Positions 4,930 to 23,815 of a stretch of 64,000 bases of DNA are shown piece by piece. The DNA is from a virus (Duplodnaviria > Caudoviricetes), in the IMG/VR virus record IMGVR_UViG_3300020403_004398, positions 1 through 64,000 of that record. One strand, 5' to 3'. The position numbers were made by a program, and so were the translations under genes. The notes below the pieces were generated by a model. That model searched no databases. It was not told the origin of the DNA and worked only from the letters and a program-made list of their open reading frames with translations. Positions within the stretch are counted from its first letter, which is position 1, and each line of letters starts with the position of its first letter.

Positions 4930-4932
4930 TAT
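4904..4932 (+). promoter_or_regulatory. Sigma70-type promoter
   Basis: TTGACA (4904-4909), 17 bp spacer, TAATAT (4927-4932). A perfect TATAAT also lies at 4930-4935. Confidence 0.7.
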
Positions 4933-4952: not shown

Positions 4953-5735
4953 ATGAACGAAATAAAAAGAATCAGTTTTTCGGAATTGAAAAACTGGAAA
5001 GAGTGTCCTTACAGGCACAAGCTTATTTATGTAGATAAGATTCCCTACTTTTCAGGGAATGAATTTACTGCATTCGGAACGGCTATTCATACAGCATGTG
5101 AACATATATTGCCAAACCCAGAAACTAACGCGTTAAAAGTCTTTGAAGAAGTTTTTCTTGAAGAGCTGAGGATACTAAAAAACGAAGGCTTCACTTTAAA
5201 TAACCAGCTTGTGACAGCCATGCGTCAACAAGCTATTCCAATTTGTGAACAAATCCTTCCTTCTGTAAAAAAGTATTTTAATAATTTTGAAATTTTTTCA
5301 ATAGAAGAAGAGTTGATGGAAGATATGTCCGATATTGAATCGTACGGAAAAAAGTTTAAAGGCTTTATAGATCTTGTTATAAAAACTCCTGATGGAAAAT
5401 ACCACATAATAGATTGGAAAACGTGTTCTTGGGGCTGGAATCAACAAAAGAAAAGCGACCAAATGACAACTAATCAGCTAACTTACTACAAGAACTACTT
5501 CTCAAAAAAACACAACATCGAGACTTCAAAAATTGAAACTTATTTTGCCCTGTTGAAAAGGACAGCAAAAAAAGAAAATGTAGAAATATTTAAAACACTT
5601 TCGGGCGAAAGAAAAACCAAAAATGCTTTAAAAGTTTTGCAAAATGCTGTTATAAATATTGAAAGAGGAGTCAAAATAAAAAATAGACTTTCTTGCAAAT
5701 ACTGCAAATTTCACAACACAGAGCACTGCACATGA
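4953..5735 (+). CDS. PD-(D/E)XK nuclease, Cas4/AddB-like with Fe-S staple
   Basis: N-terminal CPYRHK, core KGFIDLV...IIDWKT, QLTYY, C-terminal CKYCKFHNTEHC. Confidence 0.85.
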   Translation: MNEIKRISFSELKNWKECPYRHKLIYVDKIPYFSGNEFTAFGTAIHTACEHILPNPETNALKVFEEVFLEELRILKNEGFTLNNQLVTAMRQQAIPICEQILPSVKKYFNNFEIFSIEEELMEDMSDIESYGKKFKGFIDLVIKTPDGKYHIIDWKTCSWGWNQQKKSDQMTTNQLTYYKNYFSKKHNIETSKIETYFALLKRTAKKENVEIFKTLSGERKTKNALKVLQNAVINIERGVKIKNRLSCKYCKFHNTEHCT

Positions 5736-6994
5736 CCGAAATAAAACAAAAAAAAAGAATTTTAGTAATAGCCGATAGCCCCCTTGCTCCATCTGGAGTA
5801 GGTACTCAGACCCGCTACATGATTGAATCTATGCTGCGCACAGGAGAGTTCTCTTTTGTTTGCCTCGCCGGCGCCATAAGACACGAGAACTACACTCCAA
5901 TGCATGTTGAACCATACAAGGAAGATTGGGTTATTCACCCTGTAGATGGATATGGCGACCCGCAAATTGTAAGAAATATGATAATTCAGTATAAACCTGA
6001 TGCACTGTGGTTTATGACTGACCCTAGATTTTATGTTTGGTTATGGGATATGGAGGATGAAATAAGGCAGAATATACCAATGATTTATTATCATGTTTGG
6101 GACAATTATCCGTATCCAACATTTAATAAACTTTTTTATGATTCTAACGATGTGGTAGCCACCATTAGTAAAGTTACGGATGACATTGTTAAGACAGTAT
6201 CACCAAACGTAAAAAGCATTAGAATACCTCACACTGTCGATACCAAAGTATTTAAGAAAAGAGATCCCGAAGAAACAGAAAAGATGAAAAAGGCCATGAA
6301 CCCGGATGATAAAATGGTTTTTTTCTGGAATAATCGCAATGCAAGAAGAAAACAATCTGGAACTTTAATATTTTGGTTCAAGGAATTTTTGGATATAGTT
6401 GGTCACGACAAAGCACTGTTGTGTATGCATACGGAGCCCAGAGACCCACATGGTCAGGACCTGCAGGCGATTATAACAGAATTGGGCTTAGATAAAGGTC
6501 AAGTGTTATTTTCTACGACAAAAATGGAAGCTCTTGATTTGTCAAAAGTATATAACGTTGCAGATTGCACTATAAACATTTCAGATGCAGAAGGATTCGG
6601 ACTTGCTACTCTTGAGTCATTGGCTTGCGAAACGCCAATTATTGTAAATATGACAGGTGGCCTACAAGAGCAGGTGACAGATGGAAACCAGTGGTTTGGT
6701 ATTGGAATTGAACCATCCTCTAAAGCGGTAATAGGATCTCAAGAGGTCCCTTTTATTTACGAAGACAGGATAAGTAAACAAAACTTTTTAGATGCAATGG
6801 TCGAGTTTTTTAACAAATCAAAAGAAGAAAGAGAAGAGTTAGGTTCTGCAGGCCGCAATCACGTTTTAAAAAATTATGGTCATGCACAATTTTCAGGCCT
6901 GTGGTATCAAACATTTCAAGATGTTTTTAAAGAGTTTGGATCTTGGGATACTAGAAAAAACCACAAAAGATGGCATTTGATGGAGTTAAGATGA
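5732..6994 (+). CDS. Glycosyltransferase, GT-B/GT4-like
   Basis: DSPLAPSGVG, NRNARRK, AEGFGLATLESLACETPII. Start placed at the ATGA overlap. Confidence 0.9.
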   Translation: MTEIKQKKRILVIADSPLAPSGVGTQTRYMIESMLRTGEFSFVCLAGAIRHENYTPMHVEPYKEDWVIHPVDGYGDPQIVRNMIIQYKPDALWFMTDPRFYVWLWDMEDEIRQNIPMIYYHVWDNYPYPTFNKLFYDSNDVVATISKVTDDIVKTVSPNVKSIRIPHTVDTKVFKKRDPEETEKMKKAMNPDDKMVFFWNNRNARRKQSGTLIFWFKEFLDIVGHDKALLCMHTEPRDPHGQDLQAIITELGLDKGQVLFSTTKMEALDLSKVYNVADCTINISDAEGFGLATLESLACETPIIVNMTGGLQEQVTDGNQWFGIGIEPSSKAVIGSQEVPFIYEDRISKQNFLDAMVEFFNKSKEEREELGSAGRNHVLKNYGHAQFSGLWYQTFQDVFKEFGSWDTRKNHKRWHLMELR

Positions 6995-8274
6995 AAATAC
7001 TTTTAGAAGCACCTATATTGACACAATCTGGGTATGGGGAACATTCTCGATTAATCTTCGAGTCGTTAAAAGGCACAAACCACGAAATTTACACCAACCC
7101 ATTAAACTGGGGCAACACACCGTGGATACAGATAACTGAGCACGAAATATATAAAAATTCAATTATTGAATTTTACAAGTATGTAAATGATTGCAAACAA
7201 TCAAATCAAGAAGTTTCTTTTGATATGCAGATCCATGTAGGTATACCTAATGAATTTGAAAAGAAAGCCCCTTACTCTGTCTGCGTGACAGCAGGCATAG
7301 AAACAGACAGGGTTTCTCCGAATTGGTTAATGAAAACTCATCAGGGCATAGACAAAATTATAGTCCCGTCAGAACACTCAAAATCCGGGTTCACGTCTGT
7401 AAACTACGAAGTTGTGAATAACAGCAACAACACCAAGACCTTATTAAAGTGTAACTGCCCAATAGAAGTTGTGCCGTATCCTGTTAAACAGTTTGACGAC
7501 GTCGAACTGCAACTAGATTTAAAGACAGAGTTTAATTTTCTGTCGGTCGCCCTCTTGGGCCCAAGAAAAAATATAGAGAATTCAATTATTTGGTTTTTAC
7601 AAGAATTTAAAGATAATCCTGAAGTCGGATTAATATTAAAGACTGCAAGGTCAAAATCAAGCTTAATGGACAAGAGGTACACAAAAGATTACATAAACAG
7701 CATCCTAGACAAATATAAAGACAGTAAGTGCAAGGTCTATTTGCTGCACGGGTCGTTAACGCCCGCAGAGATGAATTGTCTTTATAACAACCCAAAAATA
7801 AAAGTTTTAATGTCGGCAACCCATGGAGAAGGCTATGGTCTTCCGCTTTTTGAAGCAGCCTATAACGCGATGCCAGTAGTGGTCACAGATTGGAGCTCTC
7901 ATCTTGATTTTTTGACAACAGAAGTTAAGCAAAAGAGTGGAAAAACAAAAGAAAGAAAACTTTTTGCAAGAGTTGACTACAACTTAGGAGAAGTGCCAAA
8001 AGAGGTCCTATGGAAAGATATCATTGTTGAAGGCTCCCGCTGGGCTTATCCTAAAGAAAGATCCTTTAAGGAGCAAATAAGAAAAGTTTATAAAGACTAT
8101 GGGATGTATAAAAAGTGGGCAAAAGTTCTTCAGTCCAAGATCGTAAAAGAATATTCAAAAGACATTGTTCTAGAAAAAATGAAAAATGCTCTCATACCAG
8201 AAAACATGAGAATAACAGAGGAAGAAATTTCAGAAGAGATAGACGAAATGTTTGCATCGCTATCAAGGGAGTAG
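6991..8274 (+). CDS. Glycosyltransferase, GT-B/GT4-like
   Basis: TQSGYG, PRKN, GEGYGLPLFEAAYNAMPVV. Confidence 0.88.
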   Translation: MKILLEAPILTQSGYGEHSRLIFESLKGTNHEIYTNPLNWGNTPWIQITEHEIYKNSIIEFYKYVNDCKQSNQEVSFDMQIHVGIPNEFEKKAPYSVCVTAGIETDRVSPNWLMKTHQGIDKIIVPSEHSKSGFTSVNYEVVNNSNNTKTLLKCNCPIEVVPYPVKQFDDVELQLDLKTEFNFLSVALLGPRKNIENSIIWFLQEFKDNPEVGLILKTARSKSSLMDKRYTKDYINSILDKYKDSKCKVYLLHGSLTPAEMNCLYNNPKIKVLMSATHGEGYGLPLFEAAYNAMPVVVTDWSSHLDFLTTEVKQKSGKTKERKLFARVDYNLGEVPKEVLWKDIIVEGSRWAYPKERSFKEQIRKVYKDYGMYKKWAKVLQSKIVKEYSKDIVLEKMKNALIPENMRITEEEISEEIDEMFASLSRE

Positions 8275-8277
8275 TTC

Positions 8278-9903
8278 ATGTTTGTGTTCGTTTCAGATTT
8301 GTTTGTTGAAGATTATGTTGGCGGAGCTGAATTAACCACCGATGCAATTTTACAAGAAATTGACATCCCGGTCTTAACAATTAAAAGCGCAGATCTCAAT
8401 AAAAAAATCATAGATACGTTAAAAGATAGATATTGGATATTTGGAAACTTTGCTTCTTTATCTACAGAGTTGATATTATATTGCTGCAAGAATTTACAAT
8501 ATTCAGTAATTGAATATGATTACAAATACTGTAAGTATAGACTTCCACAAAAGCACATTGCCGCCGAAGGTGCATGCGAGTGTGAGTTTTCTCCAAGAGG
8601 CAAGCTAACATCTATCTTCCTTGCAAAAGCAAATAGTTTGTGGTTTATGTCGTTAGCCCAAAAGCAGTTTTATATTGACAAATTTCCATTTTTAGATAAA
8701 ACTACAACAAGAGTTTTAAGCTCTGTTTTTGATAAAAAAACGTTAGAATACATATCTTCTTTGGAAGTAACGAAAAAAAATGAAACATGGCTGATACAGG
8801 ATTCAAGCTCTTGGGTTAAAGGAACTGAATCTTCCGTCTCCTACGCTGAGAAGAACAATTTACCATATGAATCTTTTCGAGATTTAAAATACGAACAAAT
8901 GCTGCAAAAATTTGCAAAATATAAAGGATTTTTATTTTTGCCCCGCAGTTTTGACACCTGCCCGAGGACGGTTATAGAGGCAAAATTGCTGGACTGTCAG
9001 TTAATCTTGAACGAAAATGTGCAACACAAGGATGAGCCTTGGTTTACTGGTTCAAAAGAAGAAGTTTTGCAATATCTTACAAACCGGGCAAGTTTTTTTT
9101 GGGAAAAAGTAATAGAAGATATCGACGCGTTGCCAAACTTTAAACAGCAAAGTAAAGAGGAAACGCACTTTAAAATTATCATACCTGTTTACAATTCAGA
9201 AGGTTGGATAAATAAATGTCTAGAAAGTGTTAAAAACCAAAATTATTCTAATTTTGAATGTATTGTGTGTGATGACATGTCAACAGACGGCACATGGCAA
9301 AATATAGAAAAATTAAACTTAGACAATCGATTCATTAGGGTTAAGAATGTAGAAAAAAAGTATGCTTTAAAAAATATAAACGATGGAATAGAAATTCTAA
9401 AACCATCCAAACAAGATGTCATCCTAGTGCTTGATGGCGATGATTGGCTGTCAACGCCGGGAGTTCTTTCAGAAATAAACAATATTTATAATGAAAAAGA
9501 ATGCTGGATGACATATGGTAGTTTTATAAGATTTCCTGACGGAGTAGTTGGCGAAGAAGCGACTGCTTATCCCGAGAGTGTCGTAAAAGACAACTCTTTT
9601 AGAACAGATCTGTGGAGGGCTTCTCACTTAAAGACTTTCAAATATTTTTTATGGAACAATATAGACAAGAAAGACTTGAAAGACGAAAATGGTAAATTTT
9701 ATGAAGTTTCTTACGATCAGGCGATGATGCTTCCTATGTTGGAAATGTCTGGACACAAATCATCATATGTTGAAAAAATAACTTACGTTTACAATGTCGA
9801 CAACCCAAATGCAGTGAATAAGTCAAAGGCAAAAAAACAATACGATACGATGCTGCAAATAAGAAAGAAAAATACTTATTCAAGGCTGAAAAAGGAGGAA
9901 TAA
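8278..9903 (+). CDS. Fusion of a GT-B-like domain and a GT2 glycosyltransferase
   Basis: N-half has GGAE and DTCPRTVIEAKLLDC. C-half has IIIPVYNS, CDDMSTDGT and LDGDDWL (DxD). Confidence 0.85.
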   Translation: MFVFVSDLFVEDYVGGAELTTDAILQEIDIPVLTIKSADLNKKIIDTLKDRYWIFGNFASLSTELILYCCKNLQYSVIEYDYKYCKYRLPQKHIAAEGACECEFSPRGKLTSIFLAKANSLWFMSLAQKQFYIDKFPFLDKTTTRVLSSVFDKKTLEYISSLEVTKKNETWLIQDSSSWVKGTESSVSYAEKNNLPYESFRDLKYEQMLQKFAKYKGFLFLPRSFDTCPRTVIEAKLLDCQLILNENVQHKDEPWFTGSKEEVLQYLTNRASFFWEKVIEDIDALPNFKQQSKEETHFKIIIPVYNSEGWINKCLESVKNQNYSNFECIVCDDMSTDGTWQNIEKLNLDNRFIRVKNVEKKYALKNINDGIEILKPSKQDVILVLDGDDWLSTPGVLSEINNIYNEKECWMTYGSFIRFPDGVVGEEATAYPESVVKDNSFRTDLWRASHLKTFKYFLWNNIDKKDLKDENGKFYEVSYDQAMMLPMLEMSGHKSSYVEKITYVYNVDNPNAVNKSKAKKQYDTMLQIRKKNTYSRLKKEE

Positions 9904-9905
9904 TA

Positions 9906-10775
9906 GTGAAAGCATTAGTTACCGGCTATCGTGGATACATAGGCTCTAATCTGATAAGAGCGCTGAACGATAAGGGTATTGATTGGATCGGCGTAGACCT
10001 CAAAGACGGCCATGCAGCCGATGATCTTTGTAAGGGCATAGCTCATTGGGTAAAACAAAACAAAATTGATGTGATTTTTCACCTGGCAGCAATACCCAGA
10101 GTTGCATATAGTGTAGAAAATCCCCTGGAAGTCATGAAAAACAACATAAACTCTACCTCTGTAGTTTTAGAGTATGCAAAAGAAAATAACATACCAGTAA
10201 TTTACAGTAGCTCTTCTTCTGTGGTAGGAAACGGTTCAGGCCCAGCTAGTCCGTACGCTCTTTCAAAATATGTAGGAGAAATGGAAACTTTGCTGTATAA
10301 TAAGTTGTACGGCCTTAAAACAGTAGCATTGAGATATTTTAATGTATATTCTTATGATCAAGTCGCCGATAGCGAATATGCAACTGTTGTTTGTAACTGG
10401 AAAAAGCATATAACATCACCAGAGTTGACTCCATATATTACAGGCACAGGTGAGCAAAGGAGAGACATGACACATGTAGAAGACATTGTTTCGGCAAATA
10501 TTTTTTGCGCCGAGAACATAGAAAATGAAGAATTATGGGGTGAGTGGTACGATGTAGGTTCAGGCGAAAATATAAGTCTAAACGAACTAAAAGACATAGT
10601 TTTAAAGTATTTTCCCAGCCAAAAATTTGAATACGTACCGGCCCGAGCAGGGGACGTCATGTATACAAAAGCAGATTTAAATAAATTTAAAAAACACGGA
10701 TGGAGCAGCGAGGTACCATTACGAGAAGGTCTATGCAGTGTTTATGAAAGATTAAAAAATGAAACTGGCTCTTGA
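9906..10775 (+). CDS. NAD-dependent epimerase/dehydratase (SDR)
   Basis: GYRGYIGS, SPYALSK, LRYFNVY, RDMTHVED. Confidence 0.9.
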   Translation: MKALVTGYRGYIGSNLIRALNDKGIDWIGVDLKDGHAADDLCKGIAHWVKQNKIDVIFHLAAIPRVAYSVENPLEVMKNNINSTSVVLEYAKENNIPVIYSSSSSVVGNGSGPASPYALSKYVGEMETLLYNKLYGLKTVALRYFNVYSYDQVADSEYATVVCNWKKHITSPELTPYITGTGEQRRDMTHVEDIVSANIFCAENIENEELWGEWYDVGSGENISLNELKDIVLKYFPSQKFEYVPARAGDVMYTKADLNKFKKHGWSSEVPLREGLCSVYERLKNETGS

Positions 10776-11649
10776 GAACGTTGATCTGTCAAGTTCTTCA
10801 GGTCCCAATTCTTTTGCAAAAAAAATAATACCTAGCCTAGAAGAAGAGGGTTGTGAATTGGTAGGTTTACAAAAAGCAGAAGTTTCTTTGTGCTTTATAG
10901 AATCTTACATGAAAATTAAATGTCCTAGGATACTACGCTTAGATGGTATATATTTTAACACGAAACAAGATTACAAGAACCTGAACTTAAACATAAAAAA
11001 AACTTTCAACAATTCAGCAGGAGTAGTGTTTCAGAGCGAATTTAATAAAAGGCTTATAACAAAATTTTTTGGAGAAAAAGACAATAACATAGTAATCCAC
11101 AACGGCGCAGATATTGAGACGATTGAACAAACCCCGCCAATGCAAAATGATAAATTTAACAACATCTGGTGCGCAGCATCATCCTGGCGCCCACACAAAA
11201 GATTAAAAGAGAACATTAGATATTTTCTAGAACATAAAGAAGATAATGATTTGTTGATAATAGCAGGACATGTCAAACCACAAGAGCAGATAAAAGACTC
11301 TTCAATAGTCTATTTTGGAAATTTGCAACAAAAACAACTATACTCTTTATATAAGGCAAGTAAATATTTTTTACATTTAGCATGGCTTGACCACTGCCCA
11401 AATGTTGTTGCAGACGCCCGCGCCGCCGGGTGTCATATTATCTGTTCTTCGGACGGAGGAACAAAAGAAATAGCAGGACTAGACGCAACGGTAATTGCAG
11501 AATATGAGGACTGGAACTTTGAACCTACTAGGCTTTATGAACCTCCAAAAATGGATTTCACCCGTAAAGCTAAGAATGTTTTGAATTCAGAAAACAACAT
11601 AAAAAAAACAGCAAAATTATATAAAAACTTTATGGAGTCAGTAATATGA
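10759..11649 (+). CDS. Glycosyltransferase, GT4-like
   Basis: SGPNSF, NGAD, RPHKRL, DHCPNVVADARAAG. Confidence 0.8.
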   Translation: MKLALENVDLSSSSGPNSFAKKIIPSLEEEGCELVGLQKAEVSLCFIESYMKIKCPRILRLDGIYFNTKQDYKNLNLNIKKTFNNSAGVVFQSEFNKRLITKFFGEKDNNIVIHNGADIETIEQTPPMQNDKFNNIWCAASSWRPHKRLKENIRYFLEHKEDNDLLIIAGHVKPQEQIKDSSIVYFGNLQQKQLYSLYKASKYFLHLAWLDHCPNVVADARAAGCHIICSSDGGTKEIAGLDATVIAEYEDWNFEPTRLYEPPKMDFTRKAKNVLNSENNIKKTAKLYKNFMESVI

Positions 11650-12653
11650 AGGTAGCCATTATTGGATGCGGAAAGATTTTTCCTAGACATTTTGAATCTA
11701 TACAAAAAAATAAAAACTTTTCTTTGGTTGCTTTATGTGACACAAACAAAGAAATAGTTGAAAATTTATCACGAAAACACAAAGTTAGTGGGTATGTTTT
11801 TTATAAAGAAATGCTAAAAAAGGAGAGTATAGACCTTGCAGTTATTGCAACTCCAAATTCAATGCACTTTAAACAAGCAAAACATTGTTTAAGAAGCGGA
11901 GTAGATGTCTTAATAGAAAAGCCAGCATCACTAAGTCCAGAAAAAATAAAAAAAATAGAAAAGATAGCAAAACAAAATAAAAAAAACGCTTATTGTGTCT
12001 TGCAAGTGCGTCTCAATCCTGTTGTGCAAAAAGTTAAAAAACTCTTAGAAAAGAATATATTGGGCGAAATTAGAGGAATCAGTCTAGTTCAAAGGTGGCA
12101 GCGCCCAGTTGAATATTTTTCAGATTGGAGAGGCGACCCAACCATCGGCGGCGGTACCTTGCATGAGTGTGGGATTCACTATTTAGACATATTGTGTTAT
12201 CTTTTTGGTCGTCCAGAGATTGTTTCTTCAAAATCGTATAATACGAAACACAAAGCCACACAAATAGAGGATACAATTTATTCTATTTTGGACTATGGAA
12301 AATTTGGTGGAACAGTTGAGGTTACTATTTCTGCAGAGCCGAAAAACATAGAGTGCTCAATATCTATTTTAACTGACAGGGCTTTTCTAAAAATAGGAGG
12401 CCTGGCCCTGGACAAAGTTGAAGAAGTAAAGTTTTTAGACAATGAAGTTAAATTTAAGAAAAAATATGATAAACTAATGAAAGACCTATCAAATCCTAGA
12501 GAAATTAATTCTTATGGTGCCTATTCAGGGTCGTGTCCGAATCATCCAGAATTATATCGCAATTTAGATGATTTTAACATCTCAGAGGCGTATAGTTCGT
12601 TAAAAATGATTGAGAAAATTTATGAAAAATGTGGAGTAGAATACAGTGAGTAA
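11646..12653 (+). CDS. Gfo/Idh/MocA oxidoreductase (WlbA/WbpB-like sugar oxidase)
   Basis: IGCGKI, ATPNSMH, EKP, RLNP, GGGTLHECGIHYLD. Confidence 0.88.
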   Translation: MKVAIIGCGKIFPRHFESIQKNKNFSLVALCDTNKEIVENLSRKHKVSGYVFYKEMLKKESIDLAVIATPNSMHFKQAKHCLRSGVDVLIEKPASLSPEKIKKIEKIAKQNKKNAYCVLQVRLNPVVQKVKKLLEKNILGEIRGISLVQRWQRPVEYFSDWRGDPTIGGGTLHECGIHYLDILCYLFGRPEIVSSKSYNTKHKATQIEDTIYSILDYGKFGGTVEVTISAEPKNIECSISILTDRAFLKIGGLALDKVEEVKFLDNEVKFKKKYDKLMKDLSNPREINSYGAYSGSCPNHPELYRNLDDFNISEAYSSLKMIEKIYEKCGVEYSE

Positions 12654-14486: not shown

Positions 14487-14490
14487 AACA

Positions 14491-15769: not shown

Positions 15770-16683
15770 AGGTTTTAGTTTTAGGTGGAACAGGCTTTGT
15801 AGGCAAGAATCTAGTTGAAAGATTGAACAACGATAATCACGAAGTGGTGGTTTGTTCACGTTCAACGGGAGTAGACTTATTAGACTATGAACAAACGCAC
15901 AAGGCAATAGAGGATTGCAAACCAGAGATAATATTTAACTTGTCTTCGCACGGAGGAAGCATGCTATACGTAAGAGAATTTGCTGCTGACGTCTTGTCTG
16001 ATAACACAAAAATGACCATAAACCTCTATGAAGCAGTTAAGAATGTAGACAAAGAAATAAGGATAATACAGCCTTTTTCAAATTGTTCTTATCCCGGCGA
16101 CAGCTCAATACAAAAAGAAGAGGACTGGTTACACGGAAAGGTGCACGATTCTGTACTTTCGTTTGGAAACTCAAAGAGAGTAATGTATTACGTATCACAA
16201 TGTTATTACAACCAATACGGAATTAAGACAGTCAATTTATTGCTTCCAAACACGTATGGACCAGGAGACTCTTGTGATCCAAAGAAAACACACGCTTTAA
16301 ACGGAATGATCATAAGGATGATTGAGGCCCAAAGAAAAGGTGATTCTGAATTTGTTGTCTGGGGTACCGGAAAGCCGATAAGAGAATGGGCATATATAGA
16401 CGATTTTGTCCAAGCGTTGGTCTTGGCAATGAACATAGATCATATGGAGTATCCAATAAACATTGGCCAGGAAAAGGGTTACTCTATAGCTGAGTCTGCG
16501 GCCTTGATCAAGAGGGCCCTGGGGTTTGAAGGACCCATACGATTTGATACAAGTTATCCAGATGGAGATCCAGTAAAGATTTTATCAAGAGAAAAATTTA
16601 ATAAATTTTTTACTGATTTTACTTTTTTTGATCACGAAAAGGGTATACAGAAAACTGTAGAATTTTATAAAAAAATGTTATAA
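15766..16683 (+). CDS. GDP-L-fucose synthase-like SDR with atypical active site
   Basis: GGTGFVG, NCSYP, PNTYGPGD, HAL, VWGTGKPIREWAYIDD. FGNSK replaces YxxxK. Confidence 0.8.
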   Translation: MKVLVLGGTGFVGKNLVERLNNDNHEVVVCSRSTGVDLLDYEQTHKAIEDCKPEIIFNLSSHGGSMLYVREFAADVLSDNTKMTINLYEAVKNVDKEIRIIQPFSNCSYPGDSSIQKEEDWLHGKVHDSVLSFGNSKRVMYYVSQCYYNQYGIKTVNLLLPNTYGPGDSCDPKKTHALNGMIIRMIEAQRKGDSEFVVWGTGKPIREWAYIDDFVQALVLAMNIDHMEYPINIGQEKGYSIAESAALIKRALGFEGPIRFDTSYPDGDPVKILSREKFNKFFTDFTFFDHEKGIQKTVEFYKKML

Positions 16684-16699
16684 TGAAAAGGAAAATGTT

Positions 16700-17629
16700 A
16701 TGAGTAAAAAAGTTTTTGTTACTGGAGGTTGCGGATATATTGGGACCTCTTTAGTGCCCCTCCTTTTAAGCGAGGGATATGAGGTTACAGTCTATGATAT
16801 ATTGAACGCCGGCGGGGATGGTATAGTTCACAACTTTGCCAGCCCTAACTTTAAATTTATAAAGGGCGATATTTTAGATAAAGATTTGTTAAAAAAGTCA
16901 ATAAAAGGTCACGATATAGTTGTTCATTTAGCGGCAATCGTTGGTCTCGCCGCGTGCAATAGAAACCCAGATTTAACTTACGAGATAAATCATCAGGGAA
17001 CTAAAAATATAATAGAATGCTTAGACGGTACACAGTTTTTAATATATGGATCCACCGGGTCAAATTATGGCGCCGTAAAGGGTGTGTGCACAGAAAAAAC
17101 CCCATTAAACCCATTAAGTGTCTACGGGAAAAGTAAAACCCTGGGAGAACAAGAGGTTATGAAATACGGAAACTCTACAGCGTTTCGTTTTGCCACAGCT
17201 TTTGGTGTGAGTCCTCGGATGAGGTTGGACCTTTTGGTAAATGACCTTTCCTATTTGGCTTCAACACAAAAGTATCTTGTGATTTACGAGTCGCATTTTA
17301 TGAGAACGTTCATTCATGTAAGAGATATAGCAAACGTATTTAAATTTACTATCGAAAATAAAGAAAAAATGTCCGGTGAGGTTTACAACGTAGGCTCTGA
17401 GTCAATGAATTATTCCAAAAAAGACATTTGTGAACTTATACAAAAAAAGACAGGATGCTATGTACACTATGCAGAGTTTGATGGAGATGTCGATAAGAGG
17501 GATTATGTGGTCTCGTATAATAAAATAAATTCCCTAGGTTTTGAAACATCAATAGATGTTTCAGAAGGAGTAGATGAATTGCTGCAAGTTTTTCCACTTA
17601 TAAAAATAGAAAACAAATATCAAAATTAA
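16700..17629 (+). CDS. NAD-dependent epimerase/dehydratase (SDR)
   Basis: GGCGYIG, VYGKSK, RFATAFGVSPRMRLDLLVN, RTFIHVRD. Confidence 0.9.
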   Translation: MSKKVFVTGGCGYIGTSLVPLLLSEGYEVTVYDILNAGGDGIVHNFASPNFKFIKGDILDKDLLKKSIKGHDIVVHLAAIVGLAACNRNPDLTYEINHQGTKNIIECLDGTQFLIYGSTGSNYGAVKGVCTEKTPLNPLSVYGKSKTLGEQEVMKYGNSTAFRFATAFGVSPRMRLDLLVNDLSYLASTQKYLVIYESHFMRTFIHVRDIANVFKFTIENKEKMSGEVYNVGSESMNYSKKDICELIQKKTGCYVHYAEFDGDVDKRDYVVSYNKINSLGFETSIDVSEGVDELLQVFPLIKIENKYQN

Positions 17630-17644
17630 AAGAGGAGATTCAAA

Positions 17645-17938
17645 ATGAATATTAAACAATATTATCAATATTACTTGACTTTACACCAAAATCCAAAATG
17701 TAGATTGTTACATTTTATAGGGCAATGGTTTACGTTATTCTTTACAGCGTTTGTTTTGTACAACTGGTACTGGTATTTGATTCCTTTAATACCTTTTGTA
17801 ATTTATCCTTTTGCCTGGTCCGGACATTACTTTTTTGAGAAAAACACTCCGGCAGCCTTTTCAAATCCTCTATATGCAAAAATATCTGATTGGATTATGT
17901 TTAAAGATATATTGATCGGTAAGTTAAAAATATGGTAG
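17645..17938 (+). CDS. DUF962 / Mpo1-like membrane protein
   Basis: YLTLHQNPKCRLLHFIG, hydrophobic core, AWSGHYFFEKNTPA. Confidence 0.85.
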   Translation: MNIKQYYQYYLTLHQNPKCRLLHFIGQWFTLFFTAFVLYNWYWYLIPLIPFVIYPFAWSGHYFFEKNTPAAFSNPLYAKISDWIMFKDILIGKLKIW

Positions 17939-18870
17939 AAAAAAATATTCTTATAATGGGGGGCTGTGGGTATATAGGAAGTCGGCTTTATGAGAGCTTG
18001 TCCAAGAAATACAAAGTTGATTCCTGGGATCTTGAATGGTATGGCAACCCTGCAAATATAAAAAACAAAAAAGTAGACTTGCAACACATAACGCGAGAGG
18101 ATATCTCTAGCTACACTCACGTTATTTTACTCGCAGGCCATTCAAGCGTGAAGATGTGTGAAAACAACTCTCTTTCAACCATCAAAAACAACGTTATAAA
18201 CTTTATAAAAATATTAGAACTTTTAACAAAAGAGCAGATTTTTATATACGCAAGTAGTTCATCTGTTTATGGCGACACAGAGACACGTAAAGTAAATGAG
18301 GAGTATATTAGTTTTAGGCCAAACAATTTTTATGACCTATCGAAACATGAGGTGGACTCATATGCTCAGCTTTCTCAAAAAGCGTATTTTGGGTTAAGAT
18401 TTGGCACGGTCAACGGGCCTTCTCCCAATCTGAGGAACGACATAATGATAAATGCGATGACATACAACGCTATCGAGAACGGAAAAATATTTTGTTTCAA
18501 CCCAGAGATTAATAGGCCAATATTAGGTATCTCTGACCTGTGCCGCGCTTTTGACGTTTTGATAGAAAAAGCAAAGTTTTCTAATAGGGGGATTTACAAC
18601 TTAGCATCGTTTAATTCAGACGTCCGTACGATCGCCTCAAAGGTAGCGAGTGAGACTGGCGCAGAATTAGAAGTAGTGGACTCCCCTCCAGATAATATTA
18701 CAAATGTAAAGTTGCAATCAAAAACTTACGATTTTTTAATTGATAGCACAAAATTTGTTAAAAAGTTTGATTTCTCTTTTGAGGATACAGTAGGGACAAT
18801 AGTGAAATCATTAGTTGATAAATATCATGAATTACGTAAAGGAAATAGATCAAATGCAAAATTATACTGA
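17932..18870 (+). CDS. NAD-dependent epimerase/dehydratase (SDR)
   Basis: GGCGYIG, FYDLSK, LRFGTVNGPSPNLRND. Confidence 0.88.
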   Translation: MVEKNILIMGGCGYIGSRLYESLSKKYKVDSWDLEWYGNPANIKNKKVDLQHITREDISSYTHVILLAGHSSVKMCENNSLSTIKNNVINFIKILELLTKEQIFIYASSSSVYGDTETRKVNEEYISFRPNNFYDLSKHEVDSYAQLSQKAYFGLRFGTVNGPSPNLRNDIMINAMTYNAIENGKIFCFNPEINRPILGISDLCRAFDVLIEKAKFSNRGIYNLASFNSDVRTIASKVASETGAELEVVDSPPDNITNVKLQSKTYDFLIDSTKFVKKFDFSFEDTVGTIVKSLVDKYHELRKGNRSNAKLY

Positions 18871-20053
18871 AATAAACGAGTGTCGAGTTTGTAGCAGCAG
18901 CAACCTGCAGGAAGTACTAGATTTAAATGAACAGCCCTTGGCAAACAGCTATCACAAGGGAGAACCCTTGGAAAGCTTTCCTTTGAAGATCAACGTTTGC
19001 GAAGAATGTCACCACGTTCAACTAAGTGTCGTTGTAGATCCAGATTTGATGTTTAAAGAGTACCTTTATGTTAGTGGTACCAGTAAAACACTGCATGAGT
19101 ACTTTGAAAATTTTGTTTCACTATGCGAAGAGTATGTGCATTCAAAAGGAAATGTGCTAGATATTGCCTGCAATGACGGAACTCAACTTGATAAATTTAA
19201 AGCAAGGGGTTGGAACACTTTCGGAGTCGACCCGGCGGTTAACTTATATCCTTTAAGCAGTAAACAACATAGTATCGAGTGTGATTATTGGGACGAACAA
19301 GTTGCACTAAATTTTGAACAAAAATTTAAAATAATCACCGCACAAAATGTTTTTGCACACGTACATGATATACATGATTTTTTGAAGTGTTGTCACTTGT
19401 CTCTTGAGGAGGATGGCCACTTGTTCATACAAACTTCGCAAGCAGATATGATCATAAATGATCAATTCGACACCGTGTATCACGAGCATTTATCATTTTT
19501 TAACTCAAAATCGATGAAAAAGGCAGCAAATCTTAATGGTTTTTCACTTATAGACGTTCGTAATGAAGATATTCACGGCGGCAGTTACGTGTTTGTCTTG
19601 AGAAAGGGTAGGCACAGCGAAGCGAAATCCATGAAAAAGATACTAAAAGAGGCAAAAACAGGCCTGTTTTTACCTGAAACTTATGTAAAATATGCACAAA
19701 ACTGCTTAAAAGTGGTAAAAGATTTCCAAAAACAAGTGGAAGAACACAGAAGAAATGGCTTTAAGGTGGTCGGATACGGCGCCGCCGCAAAAGGTAATAC
19801 TTTTTTAAACTTCGCAAACATAAAATTAGATTATATTGTAGACGACAACCCACTAAAACAAGGCTTAAGCACCCCAGGAATGAACATACCTATAAAAAAC
19901 CCGAACACGATAGGTGAGGAAGAGCACGAAAAATTAGTGATAGTGCCTTTAGCATGGAACTTTTTTGAAGAAATAAGGAATAAAGCAAATACTATCGCGG
20001 GTAAAAGCTTGCGTTTTATAAAATATTTTCCAAAAATGGAGATTGTAACATGA
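18854..20053 (+). CDS. NDP-sugar C-methyltransferase (Zn-binding, SAM-dependent)
   Basis: CRVC...CEECHHVQL, DIACNDG, NVFAH, YHEH, HGGS, GYGAAAKG. Start placed at ATG 18854. Confidence 0.9.
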   Translation: MQNYTEINECRVCSSSNLQEVLDLNEQPLANSYHKGEPLESFPLKINVCEECHHVQLSVVVDPDLMFKEYLYVSGTSKTLHEYFENFVSLCEEYVHSKGNVLDIACNDGTQLDKFKARGWNTFGVDPAVNLYPLSSKQHSIECDYWDEQVALNFEQKFKIITAQNVFAHVHDIHDFLKCCHLSLEEDGHLFIQTSQADMIINDQFDTVYHEHLSFFNSKSMKKAANLNGFSLIDVRNEDIHGGSYVFVLRKGRHSEAKSMKKILKEAKTGLFLPETYVKYAQNCLKVVKDFQKQVEEHRRNGFKVVGYGAAAKGNTFLNFANIKLDYIVDDNPLKQGLSTPGMNIPIKNPNTIGEEEHEKLVIVPLAWNFFEEIRNKANTIAGKSLRFIKYFPKMEIVT

Positions 20054-20841
20054 AAATCGCAGTGCTTATAACAGGGCAAATGAGAGATTACAAAGTTAAT
20101 GCAAACAATCACTTGAAACATGTGATAGAAAACAACGATGCTGATGTTTTCGTATATGCTTGCAACAAAAACACATTACACACAGTAGGGAGAAACATAG
20201 ACCAAAAATATGTAGAGACAACCTCTGCCACAAAAGAAGCACTAAAAAAAGAAATACAAGAAATTTATGGAGAAAATTTAAAAAGAGTTTTTGTCGACGA
20301 AAATGAAAATTTAGATGACAGCGATTTTGGAACCCTTGGTTATTTTAAAAGAAAAATGAACAATCAGATGTCAAATATAAGAAAAGGTTTTCAGATGGCC
20401 ATGTCCCATTCAGAAGAAAATAAATTTGAATACGATATAGTTGTTAGGTTGCGTCCCGACAATTCTATGTTACCATTACCACTATCTTTAAAAAATTTAA
20501 AGTTGCAAGAAGGGGTTTTGTATAGTACAATATATCCAAGTGGCCATCGGGATCCCTGGTTCTTTTCTTTTGCAAAGCCGTCAACATTTGAAAAGTACTG
20601 CTCGTTTGTTTATATGGATGGTTGCGATGAAAGTAGAACAGACAACAACTTTGATTGCCCTGAGTTGGCACTAGAGAAGTTTCTAGCAGAAAAACAAATA
20701 GAAATAGCTTTGCTGAACAGTGTGTGTCTGCCTTTTTATCAGTATGACAAGACCAAACCAATAACAAATTTTCCGTATGTCAATATACAAGAAAAGCTGA
20801 TAGATGCTTCTGGAAATTTGGTTGATGTGAAGACAGGATAA
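20050..20841 (+). CDS. Putative glycosyltransferase-like protein
   Basis: KIAVLITGQMR...YDIVVRLRPD pattern typical of viral glyco-cluster proteins; supported by context. Confidence 0.55.
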   Translation: MKIAVLITGQMRDYKVNANNHLKHVIENNDADVFVYACNKNTLHTVGRNIDQKYVETTSATKEALKKEIQEIYGENLKRVFVDENENLDDSDFGTLGYFKRKMNNQMSNIRKGFQMAMSHSEENKFEYDIVVRLRPDNSMLPLPLSLKNLKLQEGVLYSTIYPSGHRDPWFFSFAKPSTFEKYCSFVYMDGCDESRTDNNFDCPELALEKFLAEKQIEIALLNSVCLPFYQYDKTKPITNFPYVNIQEKLIDASGNLVDVKTG

Positions 20842-20845
20842 AAAG

Positions 20846-21679
20846 ATGGTTTTAGTGCAATTAACAAATGGCTTTGGAAACAACTTGTTTCAATACAATG
20901 CCGCAAGGCTTTTAGCTGAATATCACAATCAAGATGTTTATGCAATACCGCCGAGTCAAGATTACTATGCTGTGCCTTGTCTCAAAAAGTTAGGAATCAA
21001 GTTTTTTGACGGGCAAGATAAGGTGTCTTCTTTGATTGGTGTGAATGACGCGAACTATAATTATTTTTTTGATAAGCAGTTTTTAAGTTATAACTTTATG
21101 CTAAATGGATATTTTGAGGATTACACCTACTATAAAGAGCACATTCAAGATATTAAAAAGTGGTACCCAAAAGTAAACAAGAGAGGGAATAACGATCTAG
21201 TGATTCATTTCCGTGCCGGCGACAGATTGTTTTACAAAAACGAATTTGATTCAAAGCCTTCGGTAAAATCATACCTGAAAGCAATAGAACAGTTTGACTT
21301 TGAAGATTTACACATTGTTACAGATATGCCAAAATGGGAAGAGATAACAGAGTTAGATCTAGCAAAGATGAAATTTCACAAGGATGTGCCAAAAGAACAG
21401 AGCGTGGCCCCTGCGGATTCTGTCAGGTATTTTAATTCGTTCGTCGAAGGTCTTTCGAAGTACAATCCGACAGTTAAAAAAAGAACAGTAGGAGAAGATT
21501 TTGAATTCATTAGAACGTTCAACAATATCCTCTTTCAGCACGGCACTCTGGGCTGGTGGGCCGCCGCATTGAGCGAGGCACAGCATGTTGGAGTGTACGG
21601 ACCATGGCGACCATGGAAAGCACAATCAAATAAAAATTTAAGTGAAGTAGGCCTTGAAGGGTGGTTTAAATGGAAATAG
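20846..21679 (+). CDS. Alpha-1,2-fucosyltransferase-like (GT11)
   Basis: NGFGNNLFQY, GYFED, IHFRAGD, GTLGWWAA. Confidence 0.82.
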   Translation: MVLVQLTNGFGNNLFQYNAARLLAEYHNQDVYAIPPSQDYYAVPCLKKLGIKFFDGQDKVSSLIGVNDANYNYFFDKQFLSYNFMLNGYFEDYTYYKEHIQDIKKWYPKVNKRGNNDLVIHFRAGDRLFYKNEFDSKPSVKSYLKAIEQFDFEDLHIVTDMPKWEEITELDLAKMKFHKDVPKEQSVAPADSVRYFNSFVEGLSKYNPTVKKRTVGEDFEFIRTFNNILFQHGTLGWWAAALSEAQHVGVYGPWRPWKAQSNKNLSEVGLEGWFKWK

Positions 21680-22611
21680 AGAATAAAAAAATATTAATAA
21701 CTGGAGCTTCTGGCATGGTGGGTGCTGCTGTAAGAAGCCTGCTTCCGCATGCTTTTTGCCCCACCAGAAAAGAATTAAACTTATTATCTCAAAAAGATGT
21801 AGAATCATATTTTAATGCCCACTCTTTTGATGCGGTAATACACCTCGCAGCAAAGGTAGGAGGGGTGCAAGCAAACACAAAATATGTAGCAGACTTTTAC
21901 GCAGAAAATATTTTAATGAATACAAATGTGTTAAGGTCGTCTGTTGATTCAAAAGTGAAAAAAGTAGTGTCACTTTTATCAACCTGTGTATATCCAGACA
22001 ATCCGCAATACCCATTAACAGAAGATCAGCTTCATTCCGGCCCGCCACATAGCTCAAACTATGGCTATGCGTACGCAAAGAGAATGCTGGAAGTACAATC
22101 GCGTACTTTGCAAGAACAGCACGGATTAAATTTTATTTGTGCGATACCTAACAATCTGTATGGAGAGAACGACAATTTTGACTTGGAGAACGGTCACGTT
22201 ATCCCTGCTTTAATGAGGAGAATTTGGGAAGCTAAATTAGCAGGAAGAGATTCTGTTGTGGCTTGGGGGGATGGTACTCCCCGCCGCGAGTTTACTTATT
22301 CCAAAGACATCGCAGAGATACTTGTATTTTTGTTACAAGAGTACGATAAAAGACCAGCAATAAACATTGGTAGCACTGAAGAGTGCTCCATAAGAGAAGT
22401 GGCAGAAGCAATAAAATCAAACCTTGGTTTCACCGGGCAAATTATCTGGGACTCACACAAACCTTCAGGTCAGTTTAGGAAACCAAGTAGTAACGAGTTA
22501 CTTATTTCTAGCGGGTGGGACAAAGATAAGTACACTCCTCTAAAAAATGGATTAAAAAAAGCATGCAAATGGTTTATGATAAACTATCCACACAACACTA
22601 GAGGAGTATAG
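21670..22611 (+). CDS. fcl: GDP-L-fucose synthase
   Basis: GASGMVG, HLAAKVGG, STCVYP, YAYAKR, PNNLYG, HVIPAL, REF. Confidence 0.93.
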   Translation: MEIENKKILITGASGMVGAAVRSLLPHAFCPTRKELNLLSQKDVESYFNAHSFDAVIHLAAKVGGVQANTKYVADFYAENILMNTNVLRSSVDSKVKKVVSLLSTCVYPDNPQYPLTEDQLHSGPPHSSNYGYAYAKRMLEVQSRTLQEQHGLNFICAIPNNLYGENDNFDLENGHVIPALMRRIWEAKLAGRDSVVAWGDGTPRREFTYSKDIAEILVFLLQEYDKRPAINIGSTEECSIREVAEAIKSNLGFTGQIIWDSHKPSGQFRKPSSNELLISSGWDKDKYTPLKNGLKKACKWFMINYPHNTRGV

Positions 22612-22614
22612 GCG

Positions 22615-23595
22615 ATGAGACCGAAGACTGCACTCATAACAGGAATCACCGGTCAAGATGGTTCGTATTTAAGTGAATTTCTCTTAAAGAAAGGCTACAA
22701 AGTAATAGGCTTAAAAAGAAGATCATCCTCTTTTAACACGGAAAGAGTAGACCATATATATGGCCACCCCAGGTTTCACATGGAGTTTTTTGACTTAAAC
22801 TGTGCAGGAAGCATATGGAGACTTATCAATAAATATCAGCCTGACGAATTCTACAATTTAGCAGCACAATCTCACGTGAGAGTTTCATTCGACATTCCAG
22901 AAAATACTGTTGATGGGATTGCTCTGGGTACAATGAGGATTATGAACGCCATAAGAGAAATAAAACCAAAGTGTAGATTTTATCAAGCAAGTTCCTCAGA
23001 GATGTTTGGAGACAATCCAGAATTTCCACAAAGCGAAAACACTAACTTTCACCCTGCCTCTCCTTATGCTTGCGCTAAGCTTTTCGCGCATAATCTAGTT
23101 AACAACTATAGAGAAAGTTATAACCTTCATGCTTCATCTGGTATATTATTTAATCACGAATCCCCACGACGTGGTGAGACTTTTGTGACTAGAAAAATAA
23201 CTCTGGCTGCAGCCAGAATAAAACTAGGCTTGCAGAAACAAATTTACCTAGGAAACCTCGATGCGAAAAGAGACTGGGGCTTCGCCGGAGATTATGTTGA
23301 AGCAATGTGGATGATGTTGCAACAAGATCACCCGGATGATTATGTTATATCCACAGGGGAAACTCACACAGTAAGAGATTTCTTAGATGCAGTATTTGAT
23401 CATGCAGGCTTGGATCCGGACAAGTTTTTGAAATCTGATCCTCGTCTCTTCAGGCCGCATGAAGTGCCCTTGTTGCAAGGAGACAGCACTAAAGCCAAAC
23501 TTGCTTTAGGGTGGGAACCAAAAGTAAAATTTAAAGAATTAGCAATAATGATGTACGAGAGCGATCTCGAACAAGTAAAAAAGGAGATTAAGTAA
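22615..23595 (+). CDS. gmd: GDP-mannose 4,6-dehydratase
   Basis: [50 protein letters not shown]. Confidence 0.96.
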
Positions 23596-23596
23596 A

Positions 23597-23815
23597 ATGA
23601 AGCTATCAAATCAAGCAATGGGAGCCATCATGATGGCTCTGCAGAAGTCATTATTAGAACAGTCGGATATAGTCCCAACACTAAGATCTTTTGTGTTTGA
23701 GGTGTCCGAAACGGAGGAAGAAGAGTTAACAATTAAAAATCCTCCATGTTTTAAAATAGATGGGGAGATTTTCAACCCAGAACCTGAACACCCTCGCGCC
23801 GCGGGGTCTGATTAG
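23597..23815 (+). CDS. Hypothetical protein
   Basis: 72 aa ORF tightly packed between gmd and the FmdB-like gene. Confidence 0.6.
   Translation: MKLSNQAMGAIMMALQKSLLEQSDIVPTLRSFVFEVSETEEEELTIKNPPCFKIDGEIFNPEPEHPRAAGSD

Follow-up and report, generated by a model that had tools for sequence, protein, structure and literature searches.

To what does a tailed phage attach a glycan for which it encodes a whole block of enzymes? The question is raised by the IMG/VR virus record IMGVR_UViG_3300020403_004398 (Duplodnaviria; Caudoviricetes), of which we analyzed positions 1 to 64,000 (hereafter the window, 64,000 nucleotides in length). Sugar and glycosyltransferase (GT) clusters have been catalogued in marine phages since P-SSM2, and their default reading, as modifiers of host lipopolysaccharide (LPS), is drawn from family names alone. 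In the window, 19 contiguous + strand genes occupy positions 5732-23595, and a preliminary description of this DNA had taken them for a self-contained and soluble glycosylation pathway of a jumbo phage, directed at virion proteins or possibly DNA. The gene run that it gave is upheld here, as are its eight GT genes with nine GT-type domains (the support being of unequal strength across the genes) and, at the family level, its ten sugar enzymes and one Mpo1-like protein; its expectation of a complex glycan with deoxy-sugars, made in the cytoplasm, is likewise supported. What is new here is that, as judged from the loci compared, only the first two genes, both of the GT4 type, are core to the lineage, while the remaining 15 kb form a hypervariable island.

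A conserved GT4 pair beside a replaceable sugar island

The window proteins were compared by tblastn with 11 related loci, five from close and six from distant relatives. The pair of GT4 genes that opens the block, core GT4 no. 1 (5732-6994) and core GT4 no. 2 (6970-8274), was recovered in 11 of 11 loci, at 47-69% identity in the five close relatives and 33-40% in the six distant ones, and core GT4 no. 1 is also found in the cultured phages immuto, Mel-JY01 and RM378. In every relative examined, cultured ones included, the pair follows a gene for a PD-(D/E)XK nuclease, which forms the conserved left flank (4953-5735; Pfam PDDEXK_1, E 9.8e-21) and is itself 62-74% identical in the close and 33-40% identical in the distant relatives. 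The distant relatives are compact, with nuclease, GT, GT and a sigma factor gene in succession over ~2.9 kb from nuclease to sigma, and their GT2, carbamoyltransferase, UDP-glucose dehydrogenase and short-chain dehydrogenase/reductase (SDR) genes lie on the other side of the nuclease. The same nuclease-to-sigma distance is 10.8, 12.1, 14.3, 15.0 and 25.2 kb in the five close relatives and 18.6 kb here.

The close relatives share both flanks, the left one being composed of the nuclease and the two core GT4 genes and the right one of three small open reading frames (ORFs), the sigma gene and sometimes Gmd, and between these flanks almost no island genes are shared. Instead, their islands carry sugar genes for DegT, GT2, transketolase halves, UDP-GlcNAc 2-epimerase (WecB), RpiB, PhyH and sulfotransferases, together with GNATs, FUT8-like proteins, nucleotidyltransferases, RmlC and FdtA. 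In the window, the corresponding variable part (8278-23595, 15 kb) encodes six further GTs and eleven sugar-tailoring proteins. The comparison of cluster content across related contigs, which had been proposed as a check, thus separates a lineage-core GT4 pair from a hypervariable remainder.

Candidate acceptors of the glycan

We consider the glycosylation of phage proteins to be the best reading of this locus, although with confidence that falls somewhat short of even. According to this reading, the glycan would be put together by soluble, cytoplasmic GTs. The core GT4 pair would begin the chain on an acceptor that is phage-encoded and conserved, most likely virion proteins (for instance, the large baseplate or fibre proteins downstream), and the variable GTs would give each phage strain its own glycan. 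A phage-encoded acceptor is favoured because phages of different host phyla, which do not have the same envelope intermediates, all retain the core GT4 pair. The serotype-like swapping of islands between relatives also favours a virion-protein target, and the lack of any phage-encoded export step among the genes found (see below) favours a phage-protein acceptor. By analogy, further support comes from the small cyanosiphovirus S-CBS4, whose head module, between portal and head protease, includes distant homologues of core GT4 no. 1 along with another GT and a methyltransferase; this placement favours a virion-protein target as well. In the window, the island is placed between the prohead protease, PhoH and nuclease genes on one side and the sigma and baseplate genes on the other, an arrangement that immuto does not share (see below).

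Tripeptide counts in the downstream structural proteins pointed to putative acceptors. The tripeptide [ST]GS occurs 22 times in the giant 3423-residue protein, against a composition-shuffled expectation of 4.3 (z 8.4), and 7, 5 and 3 times in three other structural proteins (1.3, 0.6 and 0.7 expected, respectively). These four proteins, which start at 38074, 39900, 58189 and 59319 (within 38074-60500), are candidate acceptors by virtue of this enrichment, in which the tripeptide may act as a sequon, and the other large structural proteins contain zero copies of the tripeptide.

A fuller form of the proposal, to which we lend still more tentative credence, is that the GT4 pair primes baseplate or fibre proteins of the virion, and that the serotype-like island builds on them a strain-specific coat, the sugars of which would include fucose as well as a C-methyl and an N-formyl amino sugar. 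In that case, an abundant group of marine Bacteroidota and cyanobacterial myoviruses would have virion "glycotypes" as a general trait under diversifying selection. If the glycan is indeed on the virion, particles would carry serotype-like glycan diversity, with consequences for host recognition, for the way in which particles aggregate or are grazed in seawater and for the interpretation of "auxiliary metabolic" sugar genes in viromes.

Several observations weigh against virion proteins as the target. For this lineage, we infer such an acceptor from the sequences, and the [ST]GS enrichment may only reflect the repeat architecture of the proteins concerned. Fold searches with core GT4 no. 1 against PDB and BFVD returned generic GT4 enzymes only and did not identify the acceptor. 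A sigma-70-like site ahead of the block, together with the sigma gene at its end, suggests expression before the late virion genes. The truncation of the aminotransferase and the loss of the catalytic tyrosine from one Fcl-like protein, both described below, suggest that parts of the sugar chemistry may not run as proposed. In addition, a host-surface product would be compatible with the missing export genes, because peripheral GT4 and GT2 enzymes can use host undecaprenyl-linked intermediates without a phage membrane protein. Finally, published readings of comparable cyanomyovirus and pelagimyophage clusters favour modification of the host surface.

Alternative targets

The preliminary description had left this standard host-surface reading of such clusters unweighed. 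Remodelling of the host envelope is the alternative that survives best, and we regard it as unlikely rather than remote. Here, the phage enzymes would act at the inner face of the host membrane on host undecaprenyl-linked intermediates, and the Wzx/Wzy system, ABC transporter or ligase of the host would export an altered O-antigen, capsule or protein O-glycan; the surface of the infected cell would thereby change, so that superinfecting phages are excluded or the trapping of progeny is avoided. It is the standard published reading for the clusters of P-SSM2, S-SCSM2R and the pelagimyophages, including their polymorphism between related phages, and Gmd, Fcl, DegT, formyltransferase, GT2, GT4 and GT11 are all families of bacterial O-antigen loci. 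The block may also be transcribed early or in the middle phase from the sigma-70-like promoter together with the sigma gene.

The membrane steps bear directly on this alternative. Membrane proteins were sought by a crude Kyte-Doolittle window scan, the phage's own genome being only 39% complete. The 77-kb contig and the islands of the five relatives contain no protein with three or more hydrophobic segments, and the 175-kb relative, which is 96% complete, contains none with five or more and only small ORFs with two to four. No family of initiating phosphoglycosyltransferases of the WecA/WbaP type appeared in the Pfam matches of the window or of the relatives' islands; for the latter, the Pfam tally showed 25 of 46 families, and the hydropathy scan covers their membrane proteins. 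The earlier statement that Wzx/Wzy, an ABC exporter and a WecA-type gene are lacking is therefore borne out in the contig, the five islands and the 96%-complete relative. The sole ORF of the related loci with six transmembrane segments is a PHO4-type phosphate transporter fragment (E 4.5e-8) of another relative (G003, L005:731-1666), upstream of the head protease region and outside the island.

Envelope remodelling is thus confronted with the lack of an initiating transferase, flippase, polymerase, ligase or ABC permease in all of these sequences. Moreover, the core GT4 pair is common to phages of two phyla with different lipid-linked acceptors, the Bacteroidota and the Cyanobacteria, and a lytic phage would have to rely on a host flippase and polymerase that tolerate a foreign glycan made by eight GTs.

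A soluble or lipid-linked small glycoconjugate, such as a glycolipid, an osmolyte-like glycoside or a secondary metabolite, is a distinctly improbable product. The enzymes of known structure that are closest to core GT4 no. 1, namely MshA, BshA, sucrose-phosphate synthase and PimB', do use small acceptors, but the structural similarity of GT4 enzymes says little about the acceptor. The island further contains a pair of genes for an Mpo1-like protein and an SDR that recurs in another locus (L002), and the yeast relative of Mpo1-like proteins is a fatty-acid dioxygenase; sugar clusters of a secondary-metabolite type have also been proposed for cyanophages. Against such a product, the presence of eight GTs of six families and the serotype-like exchange of islands indicate a polymeric glycan that is exposed and subject to diversifying selection.

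Hypermodification of DNA, in which the GTs would glycosylate modified bases of the phage DNA and thereby evade restriction, appears very improbable. The alpha- and beta-glucosyltransferases of T4 glycosylate modified DNA bases against restriction, and the position of the GT pair, beside a nuclease gene and near a gp55-like sigma gene, is reminiscent of that of the T4 alpha-gt gene, which adjoins gene 55. As summarized in PMC12619734, the hypermodification of DNA by virus-encoded GTs involves a variety of glycans (Pyle et al. 2024). However, the ThyA/dCMP-hydroxymethylase family (PF00303) is absent from the contig and from the relatives of 79%, 88% and 96% completeness (G000, G001, G002 and G005), in a search whose controls score in 10 of 14 genomes. 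The DNA of immuto, as analyzed by liquid chromatography with ultraviolet and tandem mass spectrometric detection (LC-UV-MS/MS), contains dA, dC, dT and fdPreQ1 only and no glycosylated base (bioRxiv 10.1101/2023.04.13.536721), despite a homologous GT pair and island, and a glycan of eight GTs with fucose-type sugars is unlike the known DNA sugars. The missing PF00303 gene and the immuto data disfavour DNA, which had been offered as a possible target.

Finally, the joining of a bacterial O-antigen locus to phage DNA by mis-assembly, which the gene families typical of bacterial loci and an island G+C of 0.35-0.37, slightly under that of the structural region, might suggest, is effectively refuted and the island is not an artefact: in an independent assembly of the probable source run, read depth is flat at ~13x over flanks and island, a 15.6-kb contig spans 5687-21309 and contigs overlap at both of its ends, near-identical pieces along the island occur in a run from a separate marine study, and sugar genes also occupy the equivalent slot of five relatives and of two cultured phages.

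Glycosyltransferases of the island

Core GT4 no. 1 is a retaining GT-B enzyme by family (Pfam Glycos_transf_1, 44.9 bits). Its longest ORF would begin at a TTG at 5693, and the alignment of orthologues favours the ATG at 5732. Its AlphaFold2 (AF2) model adopts a GT-B fold (pLDDT 83), for which the top Foldseek matches were MshA and the chlorovirus protein B736L (PDB 3oy2) at E ~1e-19, with PimB' and BshA also recovered. Core GT4 no. 2 is a divergent paralogue of the first (phrog_2170, E 1.1e-19; Pfam 25.1 bits, just below the cut-off), and a phmmer search with it against PDB gave no match. The catalytic EX7E motif is invariant in 11 orthologues of each core enzyme, as EGFGL...E in no. 1 and GEGYGLP..E in no. 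2, and we therefore rejected a GtfA/GtfB-like arrangement with one degenerate partner, as the motif is kept in both. In the 96%-complete relative (G005, L007:12873-14942), a single protein of 689 amino acids combines core GT4 no. 2 with a GT2-type domain at its C-terminus.

An unusual feature of this family is an intein within a glycosyltransferase active site. Core GT4 no. 1 has 237 representative homologues at E<=1e-30, and in at least 13 of the best 150 of these an intein lies in or just before the catalytic EGFGL...E (P0124, P0125, P0127, P0130, P0142, P0155, P0156, P0204, P0139, P0159, P0170, P0182 and P0184). Twelve of them are 785-911 amino acids long, and four further homologues (two of ~800-825 and two of ~565-575 amino acids) have no readable junction. 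Pfam identified Intein_splicing and LAGLIDADG domains in all three long forms scanned (P0124, P0125 and P0155); in P0139 it identified a mini-intein. Canonical junctions are seen at two insertion sites, 'EGFGL|C...HN|S/C/T' and '...HN|CNEGFGL'. We had considered the homologues of 800-900 amino acids as fusions of the two core GT4 proteins and rejected this, since it is core GT4 no. 1 interrupted by inteins. No intein interrupts the copy in the window. Conserved sites of important genes are where inteins typically settle, and their presence in these homologues thus fits a core phage function for this GT.

The six further GTs belong to the variable part. The first is a two-domain protein (8278-9903) with a GT-B-like N-terminal half and a GT2 domain at residues 300-419 (Pfam Glycos_transf_2, E 5.7e-21, 75.6 bits); the structural neighbours of its N-terminal 290 residues in the ESM Atlas belong to GT9 and GT1 clusters (TM 0.87-0.94), and its counterparts in the relatives of 79% and 88% completeness are 23-26% identical. 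It is followed, after one SDR gene, by a short GT4-like protein of 296 amino acids (10759-11649; Pfam Glycos_transf_1, 30.8 bits; phrog_2170, E 5.6e-11). A protein resembling GT15 (Kre2/Mnt1-type) mannosyltransferases (12646-13548) matches Pfam Glyco_transf_15 at E 1.7e-17 over profile positions 70-306 of 325. GT15 is known chiefly from fungal Golgi enzymes; the phage protein has no hydrophobic segment in the hydropathy scan, hence no membrane anchor, and neither tblastn against 50,697 phage records nor phmmer against PDB gave a match. The gene that overlaps its end encodes a Glyco_trans_1_2 (CgeB-like) protein with a GT-B C-terminal domain (13545-14486; PF13524, E 6.4e-15).

The two remaining GTs lie side by side. 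The protein at 20050-20841 belongs to the virus-only family phrog_13607 and matched nothing in Pfam, nor did its family profile match PDB sequences, and at least 163 metagenomic homologues were found, several of them in Tara Oceans samples. Its AF2 model (pLDDT 92.3) matched BoGT6a in Foldseek (E 3e-6), and the VIA Z scores were 11.8 for the WrtF fucosyltransferase, 11.6 for BoGT6a and 10.4-11.1 for IspD-type nucleotidyltransferases. These model comparisons identify it as a putative GT-A-fold nucleotide-sugar transferase, and an IspD-type nucleotidyltransferase activity is also compatible with the scores. The adjacent protein (20846-21679) is GT11-like, of the alpha-1,2-fucosyltransferase type, with weak support: Pfam GT11 matched its C-terminal motif at E 0.073, far under the gathering score, and phrog_2644 its full length at E 6.8e-5, and an HFRAGD motif (HxRxGD) is present, the GDP-fucose motif of the family being of the HxRRGD type.

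Sugar enzymes and proposed chemistry

The GDP-mannose 4,6-dehydratase (Gmd, 22615-23595) passes its equivalog cut-off (TIGR01472, 462.9 bits against 415) and is 80% identical to the protein at the matching position in the 96%-complete relative. Next to it, an SDR resembling GDP-L-fucose synthase (Fcl, 21670-22611; NF047922, E 3.6e-84, 282.8 bits, below the cut-off of 500) carries the catalytic motif as YAYAK. The NDP-hexose C-methyltransferase (18815-20053) matches Pfam Methyltransf_14 (E 5.2e-34), Methyltransf_13 (E 1.1e-18) and Methyltransf_23, in an architecture of a zinc-binding N-terminus, an S-adenosylmethionine (SAM) domain and a C-MT C-terminal domain.

Of the two Fcl-like proteins described previously, the one at 21670 thus retains Y-x3-K, and the second (15766-16683; NF047922, 163.6 bits against the cut-off of 500) is Fcl-like but divergent: its FGNSK aligned in BLASTP with the YAYAK of the canonical paralogue, so that F-x3-K replaces the catalytic Y-x3-K. 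Judging from this substitution, the tyrosine-less paralogue may only epimerise or be inactive. The DegT assignment was likewise sustained in part. The family match stands (14491-15087; Pfam DegT, E 3.6e-17, in two stretches), but this mini-DegT has only 198 amino acids, as opposed to the 360-400 and both domains of a full fold-type I enzyme. When aligned to PDB 4zwv and 4xau, it keeps the lysine motif for pyridoxal phosphate (PLP), SFxxxK (SFQFRK), and has lost ~50 central residues and the entire C-terminal domain. Similar forms of 206-227 amino acids occur in two relatives (G001 and G005; L028:7602-8222 and L025:1259-1942) and as gp98 of immuto, and this recurrence across islands suggests a functional short family and not a random truncation or a broken gene. 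The neighbouring N-formyltransferase (15077-15769; Pfam Formyl_trans_N, E 4.5e-20) has the catalytic residues N-x-H...D; of the sugar formyltransferases in PDB, the GDP-perosamine N-formyltransferase 5vyr is the closest to it (E 4.7e-8).

Three further extended SDRs are encoded: an epimerase/dehydratase (9906-10775; Pfam Epimerase, E 9.4e-42) that reached no NCBIfam equivalog cut-off, a GalE or 4,6-dehydratase-like protein (16700-17629; Pfam Epimerase, E 3.4e-36) and a candidate 4-ketoreductase or epimerase (17932-18870; Pfam Epimerase, E 4.6e-27). The Gfo/Idh/MocA sugar oxidoreductase (11646-12653; Pfam GFO_IDH_MocA, E 1.7e-25) is nearest to the family of UDP-GlcNAc 3-dehydrogenases (NF040723, E 1.2e-28, below the cut-off). 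Between two of the SDRs lies the Mpo1-like protein (DUF962) of 97 amino acids (17645-17938; Pfam Mpo1-like, E 4.4e-28), which has two aromatic or hydrophobic stretches with a maximal 19-residue Kyte-Doolittle hydropathy of 1.53 and is probably, as predicted from these stretches, a two-helix membrane protein; the two hydrophobic helices depart from the description of the cluster as soluble. This gene and the neighbouring SDR gene at 16700 recur as a pair in L002:2701-3890, at 60% and 37% identity, respectively.

There is no nucleotidyltransferase or sugar-phosphate enzyme among the island genes. The pathway therefore depends on GDP-mannose and UDP-sugars of the host and is not self-contained, as it had been called. 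In the chemistry that we propose, these host precursors would feed the phage enzymes, Gmd would form GDP-4-keto-6-deoxymannose, and Fcl would convert it to GDP-L-fucose for transfer by the adjacent GT11-like and GT-A enzymes. The C-methyltransferase and an SDR could produce a C-methyl-branched 6-deoxyhexose, the Gfo/Idh/MocA enzyme suggests a branch to a 3-keto or 3-amino sugar, and the mini-DegT, the formyltransferase and the tyrosine-less Fcl paralogue may yield an N-formyl amino sugar, which is the weakest branch because its aminotransferase is truncated.

Flanking genes, expression and genome context

Upstream, the phage nature of the locus is marked by a prohead protease (259-894) and PhoH (2379-3698), which precede the nuclease. 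Downstream, the sigma-like and baseplate genes are found where the preliminary description placed them. The right flank begins with three small conserved ORFs on the + strand (23597-24371), which encode 72 amino acids, an 86-residue zinc ribbon (Zn_ribbon_8, E 1.5e-8) and 98 amino acids, the last with an N-terminal hydrophobic helix at residues 2-20; all three are kept in all close relatives. The right anchor is a candidate late sigma factor of the gp55 type (24328-25047, + strand; phrog_234, E 4.8e-4, a weak match), which is 78-83% identical in the close and 28-35% in the distant relatives; in the latter, no more than a few hundred bases separate it from the GT4 pair, and in locus L012 this interval contains one small ORF. 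Further downstream are baseplate wedge proteins at 35721 and 36263 and two giant proteins, the 3423-residue protein already mentioned and one of 2861 residues.

The whole block from the nuclease to the sigma gene (4953-25047) has no intergenic gap of 18 nucleotides or more. A near-consensus sigma-70-like site, TTGACA-17-TAATAT (4904-4932), is located in the 23-nucleotide gap before the nuclease gene and is the sole promoter-like gap ahead of this 20-kb gapless block. Over positions 2000-28000, scans for sigma-70 promoters (73 against 67.3) and for terminators (13 against 12.2) were at chance level. The motif WWCTAHTTA was not enriched window-wide (19 against 14.2 expected). Motifs of the CTA[ATC]TTA type lie 10-50 nucleotides upstream of gene starts at 2329, 25062, 27093, 35694, 57104, 63379 and 63630, and at 68.2 kb of the contig; none precedes a gene start within 4953-25047, and we draw no inference on timing from this motif.

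The contig of which the window forms the first 64 kb is a linear virus sequence of 77,012 bp from a marine metagenome; it has no terminal repeat and is 39% complete according to CheckV. Nearly every gene of the window is on the + strand. Closer relatives in IMG/VR measure 175 kb (96% complete), 159 kb (88%) and 144 kb (79%). The CheckV figures and these lengths imply a genome of about 180-200 kb and do not support the term jumbo (>200 kb). Megablast of 5000-24000 against the 50,697 phage records gave no match, the baseplate protein is ~25% identical to its best cultured match, and the window contains no tRNA genes.

We place the phage among large marine myoviruses that are related to immuto, and it probably infects a member of the Flavobacteriia. 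A related phage fragment of 6.7 kb (L035, JABHTA010000206.1), with the gene order C-methyltransferase, Fcl, Gmd, three small ORFs and sigma, was binned in a Flavobacteriales metagenome-assembled genome, which gives a weak hint of a Flavobacteriales host or else reflects a binning error. Gmd is uninformative on the host, as its bacterial matches at 59-64% are spread over many phyla and its best match (69%) is this same phage fragment.

Comparison with known systems

Two cultured phages, immuto (Flavobacterium; Bacteroidota) and Mel-JY01 (Microcystis; Cyanobacteria), share with the window the order of PD-(D/E)XK nuclease, GT4, GT4 and sugar island. Their core GT4 no. 1 is 32-35% identical to that of the window, and their island content differs from it, being composed of GT2, aminotransferases (one of them short, 214 amino acids), a methyltransferase, an SDR and more GTs. 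In immuto, the island is away from the sigma and baseplate genes, with ~22 kb of small ORFs between, whereas in the window sigma follows directly downstream. Both islands are annotated, and we found no discussion of them in the literature searched. The locus narrows the question of the target, in that the GT4 pair extends across host phyla, DNA can largely be set aside and the module is carried by phages in culture, immuto (host Flavobacterium sp. LMO8) and Mel-JY01.

A close likeness is to the large T4-like cyanomyoviruses, in which the 15-gene cluster of P-SSM2 and the clusters of S-SCSM1 and S-SCSM2R (22 cell-wall genes, 13 GTs) have been described as "LPS" or cell-wall clusters (PMC7824862, PMC12801897); GT core families are also documented in "moraphages". 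The window, with its contiguous block of six SDR genes and eight GT genes (the latter from about six families) in a large tailed phage, resembles them in its paralogous NAD-dependent epimerase/dehydratases and many-family GTs in one block, in its polymorphism between related phages and in that no phage export genes are reported. It differs in lineage, in its fixed GT4 pair beside a nuclease and a sigma gene and in its content, which includes GT15, the C-methyltransferase, the formyltransferase and the mini-DegT. Polymorphic SDR and GT clusters of large marine myoviruses were thus already known, and what is added here is another lineage with an unusually clear architecture of a fixed pair and a swappable island.

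The hypervariable host-recognition cluster of pelagimyophages is GT-rich and has been read as modifying the host O-chain (PMC7029224). Like the island of the window, it is large and non-syntenic, belongs to the structural region of a marine myovirus and abounds in GTs and in sugar genes of the O-chain type; unlike the former, it lies between VrlC and gp14, includes tail-fibre genes and is dominated by GT8. Bacterial O-antigen and capsule loci also unite sugar-nucleotide genes and GTs in one operon, the middle of which is replaced between conserved flanks, whereas the window is without their defining membrane steps, that is, the initiating phosphoglycosyltransferase, flippase, polymerase, chain-length regulator and ABC transporter.

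In the chlorovirus PBCV-1, a virus-encoded Gmd and GDP-fucose synthase together with soluble GTs glycosylate the major capsid protein, a target that has been proven chemically. As in the window, a viral Gmd and Fcl feed soluble cytoplasmic GTs and methyltransferases in a system that has no membrane glycosylation pathway; PBCV-1 is a virus of a eukaryotic alga, orthology is at the family level only and the genes of the window do not point to the capsid as the target. As summarized in the papers that cite this work, virion proteins of mycobacteriophages are decorated by soluble phage GTs, some with a methyltransferase (Freeman et al. 2023, cited in PMC12619734 and PMC12801897). The cassettes are reported to comprise two to four genes with no sugar-nucleotide pathway, in phages of actinobacterial hosts, and the glycans are on the C-termini of capsid and tail-tube proteins; the window, in comparison, has 19 genes and candidate acceptors only. 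The GT-GT-methyltransferase cassette of S-CBS4, with its distant homologue of core GT4 no. 1, is comparable to these cassettes. By analogy in the mode of action, chlorovirus capsid glycosylation and mycobacteriophage virion glycosylation would be the nearest proven systems to the locus described here.

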